Below, in pieces: positions 19,267-19,623 of a DNA stretch of 64,000 nucleotides (position 1 is the first letter of the stretch; each line of letters opens with the position of its first letter). This stretch comes from Escherichia coli. Lineage in GTDB: Bacteria > Pseudomonadota > Gammaproteobacteria > Enterobacterales > Enterobacteriaceae. The notes under the pieces were generated by a model. The model searched no databases and was not told the DNA's origin. It saw nothing but the letters and a program-made list of their open reading frames with translations. The DNA is taken from assembly GCF_003334405.1 (NCBI RefSeq), contig NZ_QOWM01000003.1; one strand, 5' to 3'. Both the position numbers and the translations under genes were made by a program.

Positions 19267-19330
19267 AATTTTTTTTTGTGGCAAAAATGGGGCAAAACGC
19301 TGCAAAAGGGGCAAAAAAGGGGCAAAAAAA
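19267..19330 (+). repeat. five tandem GGGGCAAAA-like repeats
   Basis: GTGGCAAAAATGGGGCAAAACGCTGCAAAAGGGGCAAAAAAGGGGCAAAAAAAGAG; an inverted copy (ATTTTTGCCC) lies about 90 bp downstream. Confidence 0.5.
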
Positions 19331-19623
19331 GAGTGGATTATCGTAGTTTATTGTTCTCGCTGATGATGTTTAACACATTGAAAAATAAGTAAAACACTTA
19401 TGAGTCAGATAGTTGTGATTTTTGCCCTTACTTGTTCAGATTGTATTGTTCTTTCTTACTAATTTCTTGATTTTGCGACATTTAAAAGCGACTCAATTCG
19501 TTATATGGCATCAGAAGAGTATGCGTCATGCCGGAACGCCCAGCATAAGAAATCTGATATAAAAAACTGTGGCGTGTATGGTACGGATTAGAGGGGAAAA
19601 TGTCAGCACATTTGCGAAATGAA

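Follow-up and report, generated by a model that had tools for sequence, protein, structure and literature searches.

Putative arm-type sites of the integrase IntR in a tandem repeat array at the attR end of a Rac-type prophage

The attachment site of the Rac prophage has been described at the locus considered here (Liu et al. 2015, PMC4632033; Kasho et al. 2021, PMC8407004): attL and attR share a 26-bp identity in ttcA/ttcC, XisR (YdaQ) is the Rac excisionase, and an IHF consensus lies next to the core, with a published IHF peak at attL and none at attR (PMC8407004). Arm-type sites and GGGGCAAAA repeats are mentioned in neither paper, and the word 'arm' occurs 0 times in PMC4632033. In the lambda system, the arm sites lie approximately 100 bp (P) and 50 bp (P') from the core (PMC9791396). 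The arm-binding domain PF12167/DUF3596, which has the canonical three-strand/one-helix fold, defines the IntBPP-1 subgroup of tyrosine integrases, and the members listed for that subgroup, for example those of Bordetella BPP-1, an Stx2a phage and Gifsy-2, are all designated 'putative' integrases (PMC8138268).

The window (the whole 64-kb stretch of E. coli DNA that was analysed) takes in attR, the right-hand junction between ttcA and the Rac-type prophage that interrupts it. A tandem repeat array at this junction probably represents arm-type sites for IntR, the tyrosine integrase of the Rac family, and would be the distal set, belonging to the P arm, that stayed behind at attR on integration; judged from the sequence comparisons described below, we assign this reading a probability of about 0.8. 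The searchable literature yielded neither binding or mutational data for IntR at these sites nor a description of arm sites for Rac or the PF12167 integrase family. Arrays of this kind are to be expected in a lambda-style attP, and for integrases of the PF12167 type none seems to have been mapped before.

The repeat array and the attR junction

The features of the junction are collected in Table 1. A first-pass annotation of the sequence had reported five tandem repeats and an inverted copy between the last prophage gene and uspF, and both the repeats and their location proved to be real. The array consists of five head-to-tail copies of a (G)GGGCAAAA motif, all on the same strand. The cytosines of the GCA element in successive units are at 19282, 19293, 19303, 19312 and 19323, corresponding to spacings of 11, 10, 9 and 11 bp, and Tandem Repeats Finder (TRF) returned a period of 11 with 4.8 copies. 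The GGGCAAAA 8-mer occurs 13 times in the 64-kb window, compared to 4.1 expected, with four of the occurrences within 140 bp, and four of the six sites that score best with a weight matrix over the whole window are inside the array. The clustering exceeds chance. A search of Rfam found no family matching the array. The inverted GGGCAAAA at 19420-19427 (-) is 92 bp past the last tandem copy.

Table 1. Features at and around attR, in coordinates of the window
Feature	Position	Strand	Sequence	Remark
pinR	17557-18147	-
ynaE/ydfK	18464-18730	-
ynaM	18766-18879	-		last annotated prophage gene
Whole phage-derived P arm of attR	19272-19431	+		about 160 bp, common to otherwise unrelated ttcA prophages
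P-arm array of attP, now in attR	19277-19328	+		from sequence, periodicity and weight-matrix scores
S1	19277-19287	+	TGTGGCAAAAA	putative IntR arm-type site
S2	19288-19298	+	TGGGGCAAAAC	putative IntR arm-type site
S3	19298-19308	+	CGCTGCAAAAG	putative IntR arm-type site, degenerate
S4	19307-19317	+	AGGGGCAAAAA	putative IntR arm-type site
S5	19318-19328	+	AGGGGCAAAAA	putative IntR arm-type site
Inverted repeat arm	19338-19348	+	TTATCGTAGTT	one arm of an 11-bp perfect inverted repeat
Inverted copy	19419-19427	-	GGGCAAAAA	4 bp from the att identity; role uncertain
ttcC	19428-19481	-		orphaned original 5' end of ttcA; 17 codons and a phage-supplied TAA stop
attL/attR/attB identity	19432-19457	+	TTGTTCAGRTTGTATTGTTCTTTCTT	26 bp; ttcA codons 9-17
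uspF	19658-20092	-		followed by ompN

The ttcA remnant known from K-12 could not be recognised in the first-pass annotation. It is present, encoding MSQNQEISKKEQYNLNK*, which is identical to the first 17 ttcA codons of an uninterrupted strain, and its counterpart in K-12 is ttcC b4638. The 26-bp identity, which is also the annotated att site in phage Rac-SA53, occurs only once within the window, indicating that attL and intR lie outside it, and attL was therefore taken from K-12. Strand exchange falls somewhere inside the 26-bp identity. Inspection by eye and a repeat search did not reveal convincing core-type inverted repeats within it.

As the annotation had proposed, the junction was compared with an uninterrupted ttcA-uspF junction. 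In uninterrupted strains, homology to the window is found only from 19432 rightwards and the repeats are absent, so that the repeats are prophage DNA; their presence at the same position in prophage-free strains, named beforehand as the finding that would refute the proposal, was not seen. The Rac prophage of K-12 MG1655 has the same array (52/52 identical). Prophages in ttcA that carry sitABCD (L006/L008), nleG/DUF1076 (L009/L010) or tail-fibre genes (Rac-SA53) are homologous to the window from 19270-19279, and to the left of this break the identity among ttcA prophages is 24-30%. In the most divergent of these arms, the O157/nleG type, the left flank is unrelated (24%), while the array is 92%, the spacer 69% and the core 96% identical. 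The break point and these identities make the array the outer and best-conserved end of an att arm of about 160 bp. O157:H7 strain OK1 did not provide a divergent matched attL/attR pair: its region has undergone rearrangement and contains IS elements and truncated integrase pseudogenes, with ttcA missing from their vicinity. The intR gene adjoins ttcA in 2909 of 5426 complete E. coli genomes; a megablast search with the 160-bp arm found 589 genomes, an undercount attributable to low-complexity masking and the 28-nt word size that was not used for prevalence.

The cargo directly outside the att arm (window 18464-19270) differs completely between strains, and the break is always at about 19270-19279. 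The outer edge of attP is the boundary of cargo insertion. Just outside the conserved arm, the minus strand at 19203-19240 forms a strong predicted hairpin (-20.1 kcal/mol, z = -4.15) followed by UUUUU, which could stop transcription that starts at the orphaned ttcA promoter (ttcC) from running on into the prophage. This hairpin is absent from the consensus terminator scan because its loop is longer than 8 nt. A sub-threshold match to the Rfam family CssrB (Shigella chromosomal sRNA B), which scores 27.9 bits where the gathering score is 76 (E = 0.008), covers 19099-19236 (+) and ends at the hairpin; it may be a diverged homologue of the sRNA. Further into the prophage, upstream of pinR, there is a full-length match to Rfam IS009 at 17227-17425 (+), with 221.5 bits and a gathering score of 117, which overlaps the 3' part of a tfaR-like open reading frame (16884-17459).

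The possibility was considered that the array consists of iterons for replication or partition, or of operators at which a host regulator acts on ttcA or uspF. Both had been offered in the first-pass annotation next to integrase arm-type sites, and the general look of short iterated motifs is consistent with them. However, the empty sites lack the repeats, which argues against a part in host ttcA/uspF control; the repeat unit is 9-11 bp; the genes next to the array are cargo that varies between prophages (ynaM/ynaE/pinR, sitABCD, nleG) and include no rep or par gene; and the array is always found together with the att core and the integrase type. Iterons and host-regulator sites, which we regard as extremely improbable, were left unsupported, while integrase arm-type sites are well supported: the repeats are on the phage side, occur in both arms and are kept together with the integrase, which carries PF12167.

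Similarly, the repeats might be part of the coding sequence of a small basic protein, since a 57-aa open reading frame (19219-19392, +; WP_001157925.1) runs through them. PGAP calls this frame as a hypothetical protein in strain L73 and others, including BL21, and the frame through the array is open in all variants. However, the start codon and the N-terminus lie in the non-homologous left flank and the C-terminus differs in the nleG type. In the sit-type arms, a stop is found directly before the array and no start codon is available. Moreover, the protein has no NCBIfam match and the gene is unannotated in K-12. The frame is probably a spurious gene call, and a coding role for the repeats is scarcely credible.

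The second arm, attP geometry and related integrases

In the K-12 attL, the order from the core (L004 1400-1425) is an IHF consensus TAATTTGTTGATT, a ttcA start codon supplied by the phage and the P' sites. The motif is found here as GGGGCAAA at L004 1474-81 and 1485-92, followed by a degenerate TTTGCAAC at 1494-1501. These P' sites (ATGGGGCAAAT-TGGGGGCAAAC-TTTGCAAC, L004 1474-1501) end at the intR stop codon, are spaced by 11 and 9 bp, and are on the same strand as the P-arm copies.

The IMG/VR loci with IntR homologues mostly end 3 bp after the int stop codon, and the P' arm could be read in a few that have flanks. One of these, L043 (IMGVR_UViG_2529293146_000014, 4373 bp, from an isolate assembly), has intR, the P' sites, the core and the P array contiguous on one strand and is an excised or circular form of a Rac-type element. 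Its segment 1952-3633 does not match the window, that is, it carries different cargo. Measured between its outermost sites, attP in this contig is about 255 bp long. The P sites are 104-155 bp and the P' sites 49-76 bp from the 26-bp identity, and the distance from P' to P, measured between TGCCCC elements, is 198/209 bp in Rac.

Between the array and the core, an IHF-like sequence, TTTCAATGTGTTA at 19371-19383 (-) (L043 1769-1781), has one mismatch to WATCAANNNNTTR, and the P' arm contains a perfect match to the IHF consensus (L043 1680-92); both assignments are by consensus matching only, and the number of such matches is not above chance expectation. The TAAC..ATTGAAAAA stretch at the IHF-like site is kept in all arm variants, with a similar TAACATATTGAAAA in the 933W-type arm. 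Additionally, the partner of the inverted repeat TTATCGTAGTT, AACTACGATAA, overlies the intR stop codon in attL (L004 1499-1511), and the TTATCGTAGTT/AACTACGATAA pair is also found in the contiguous attP of L043, where one arm is just inside the array and the other is over the intR stop. This repeat is Rac-specific and partly mutated in K-12 and Rac-SA53; by our own estimate, the chance of finding it in 300 bp is roughly 0.01.

The K-12 IntR polypeptide of 411 aa has an Arm-DNA-bind_2 domain (PF12167) at residues 5-69 (E=4e-26) and a Phage_integrase domain at 205-391, with a SAM-like domain between them. A PDB sequence search with the N-terminal domain of IntR found no solved relative. IntR is 43-44% identical to the integrases of 933W-type Stx phages. 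The comparison with the attP arms of related phages that the first-pass annotation had suggested was carried out, using attP sequences or both ends of the record; beyond Rac, it took in seven contiguous or rebuilt attP regions from four genera. Eight relatives whose integrases are 42-69% identical to IntR, most of them with other cores and targets, have pairs of TGCCCC in both arms.

PHB10, whose integrase is 69% identical and also targets ttcA, has TTTTTGCCCCTA-TTATGCCCCTA-TTGGCTCC directly after the int stop codon and, 208 bp beyond these P' sites, a five-slot array in which the middle slot is again degenerate; its spacer is unrelated in sequence. Among the ttcA-targeting relatives that are 63-69% identical, the pair is kept at +12/+23 after the int stop. 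In the 933W-type phage phiON-2011 (44%), which targets wrbA, TTTGGGGCACG-TCTGGGGCACG is inside the 3' end of int, and the other arm again has five slots (GGGGCG/GGGGCA/degenerate/GGGGCA/GGGGCA). The remaining six relatives (CharmingMan, Fraca, IdasGreatGrand, Klebsiella RCIP0098, Enterobacter CobraSix and Providencia PSTRCR_117lys; 42-44%) carry two TGCCCC elements at the 3' end of int, 11 bp apart, and a second pair further along the same strand; elsewhere in their loci, GCCCC is found only a few times. The separation between P' and P is 207-208 bp in PHB10 and in five of these six, and the intervening core and target are unrelated in those five; CharmingMan has a more extended second arm, its sites lying 220-261 bp away from the first pair.

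In the 933W-type and the other 42-44% relatives, both P' sites are inside the int coding sequence, in a C-terminal extension (for example D-F-A-P-Q-M-P-Q) that IntR lacks (L093 14-120; L095 2430-2496; L096 2425-2460; L098-L102). These bases would thus double as codons and binding sites. A locus with a 64%-identical integrase and another target, L176 (IMGVR_UViG_3300011374_000007), has TGCCTC twice at +12 to +35 after the int stop, which may be a variant of the arm code.

The element that is conserved in these relatives is (T)TGGGGCA, in a fixed geometry in both arms whatever the core, which is the signature expected if a shared integrase N-terminal domain binds arm-type sites. The P'-P distance of 207-208 bp (comparison of L043, L097, L095 and L098-L102) suggests that the family has a fixed intasome geometry. 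A more far-reaching proposal, which we put forward tentatively and consider rather less probable than its opposite, is that the whole PF12167 (IntBPP-1/933W/Rac) family uses one arm code, TGGGGCA, with a core-independent geometry of about 208 bp (about 20 turns), the P arm of Rac and 933W being a five-slot, self-curving scaffold. Such a scaffold may partly replace the bends induced by host proteins or Xis and may let the subsets of sites differ between integration and excision.

Excisionase binding and predicted curvature

The lambda excisionase Xis polymerises head-to-tail on its X1-X1.5-X2 sites, and excisionase sites are normally confined to one phage arm. The possibility was considered that the repeats are likewise binding sites on which XisR would polymerise head-to-tail. 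They are direct, tandem and helically spaced, and they lie in the arm that ends up in attR, as the lambda Xis sites do. XisR-type DUF1233 excisionases are co-conserved with the integrase in the relatives, and XisR binds a fragment that includes attR (PMC4632033). However, in the published EMSA (Liu et al. 2015, PMC4632033) XisR shifted the probe AttR and not the probe AttM. When the primers were mapped to the window, AttR corresponded to 19262-19555 and AttM to 19141-19431, so that AttM contains all five repeats and the inverted copy. Since AttM is unbound, binding by XisR depends on DNA that overlaps 19431 or lies to its right. Furthermore, the other arm has the GGGGCAAAA motif as well, beside int, which is not an expected location for Xis sites. 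The re-mapped EMSA shows no binding of the array by the excisionase, nor is the motif confined to one arm.

[quoted passage not shown] Because the excisionases of the relatives are also homologous (DUF1233, 28-32%), conservation by itself cannot tell Int sites apart from Xis sites. Taken with the EMSA and the second arm, we consider it unlikely that the repeats are XisR sites. The dependence of XisR on the core and the host ttcC side (19432-19555), which the re-mapped PMC4632033 probes imply, is unusual for an excisionase.

The inverted copy near the core is part of an 18-nt stretch that, in a repeat search, was 78% complementary to the P'2-P'3 pair. The O157/nleG-type arm has GAGTAAAAA in its place, and in the relatives of IntR the inverted copy is absent or oriented differently. 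It may be an extra site, part of an XisR site across the probe boundary, or a chance occurrence.

A wedge model was employed to calculate the curvature of the DNA, using Bolshoy/Trifonov parameters; as expected, a synthetic control with in-phase tracts gave 68 degrees and one with out-of-phase tracts gave 20 degrees. Nowhere else in the 64-kb window (mean 14.9, sd 8.3) does the model reach the bend predicted around 19304, which is 70 degrees over 62 bp. The A4-A7 tracts in the array units recur at 11/10/9/11 bp, as predicted for phased A-tract DNA, and a synthetic (GGGCAAAAAAC)x6 control has a predicted bend about equal to that of the array. This raises the possibility that the array is purely architectural, a phased A-tract bend that is independent of protein and binds no sequence-specific protein. 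The array has the strongest predicted curvature in the window, and the variant Rac-type arms retain a high predicted bend of 59-61 degrees. However, the part that is conserved across the relatives is TGGGGCA and not the A-tract, in sites such as GGGGCGCTA, GGGGCATAT and GGGGCACGT; the predicted bend of the 933W-type and CharmingMan arrays is only 37-41 degrees; and the motif is also paired in the P' arm, within the int coding sequence in 933W-type phages. A purely architectural role is very unlikely, more so than binding by XisR. Since the arrays of the relatives bend so much less in the model, the curvature is likely to be a helper in Rac and not a conserved function.

The array as arm-type sites for IntR, the reading that we prefer, would fit into the free attP as follows. 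The order is the intR stop codon, two to three P' sites, a candidate IHF site, the phage's ttcA start codons and the 26-bp identity, then a spacer of about 105 bp with the IHF-like site and finally the five P sites, with all of the arm sites on the same strand. IntR is heterobivalent, and its N-terminal domain would hold the arm sites while the C-terminal domains hold the core. By folding, the arms would bring integrase protomers to the crossover region, forming an intasome, and would determine in which direction the reaction runs. The sites, placed once per turn and carrying A-tracts, would make the Rac array strongly curved, which would help the arm to fold back. Five slots are available in the P arm compared to two in lambda, and the middle one is degenerate; not all of them may need to be occupied.

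Significance and comparison with known systems

Rac-type prophages are present in ttcA in over half of the complete E. coli genomes, and Shiga-toxin phages are mobilised by integrases related to IntR. Knowledge of the arm-site code and of where attP ends on the outside would define a minimal attP of about 255 bp for use in genetic tools, and the outer limit would also explain why the sitABCD or nleG cargo is always just outside about 19272. The arm sites would be concrete targets for the study of the control of Rac excision, and they leave the general understanding of such systems unchanged. If the family-wide arm code were true, attP would be predictable from sequence alone, and with it the sites at which Stx-converting phages and others of the family integrate, and arm modules would be exchangeable between integrases that have different targets.

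The closest parallel is lambda attP, with its P1 and P2 and its P'1-P'3 sites. In both cases, tandem copies of a short motif unlike the core, spaced by roughly one helical turn, are placed to either side of the crossover. The arms are at similar distances from the core (about 100 and 50 bp in lambda and 104-155 and 49-76 bp here), and the P' set abuts the 3' end of int. Both integrases bind, or would bind, these sites through a domain of their own at the N terminus, and after integration one set of sites is found in attL and the other in attR. The IHF consensus matches between arms and core in Rac may correspond to the IHF sites of lambda. Unlike lambda, the Rac motif is (T)GGGGCA(A)n and the arm-binding domain is PF12167 and not of the lambda-type family. 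In addition, the Rac P arm has five slots instead of two, all of the sites are on the same strand, and the Rac array is predicted to be strongly curved.

The A4-A7 tracts every 9-11 bp are shared with kinetoplast-type phased A-tract DNA. In contrast to kinetoplast-type bends, the A-tracts of Rac are the tails of a conserved protein-type motif and are not retained in distant relatives. Finally, the IntBPP-1 subgroup (Smyshlyaev et al. 2021, PMC8138268) shares PF12167 with IntR, and that paper gives no arm-site sequences; on the comparisons presented here, the TGGGGCA sites would be the missing DNA partner of the PF12167 domain.
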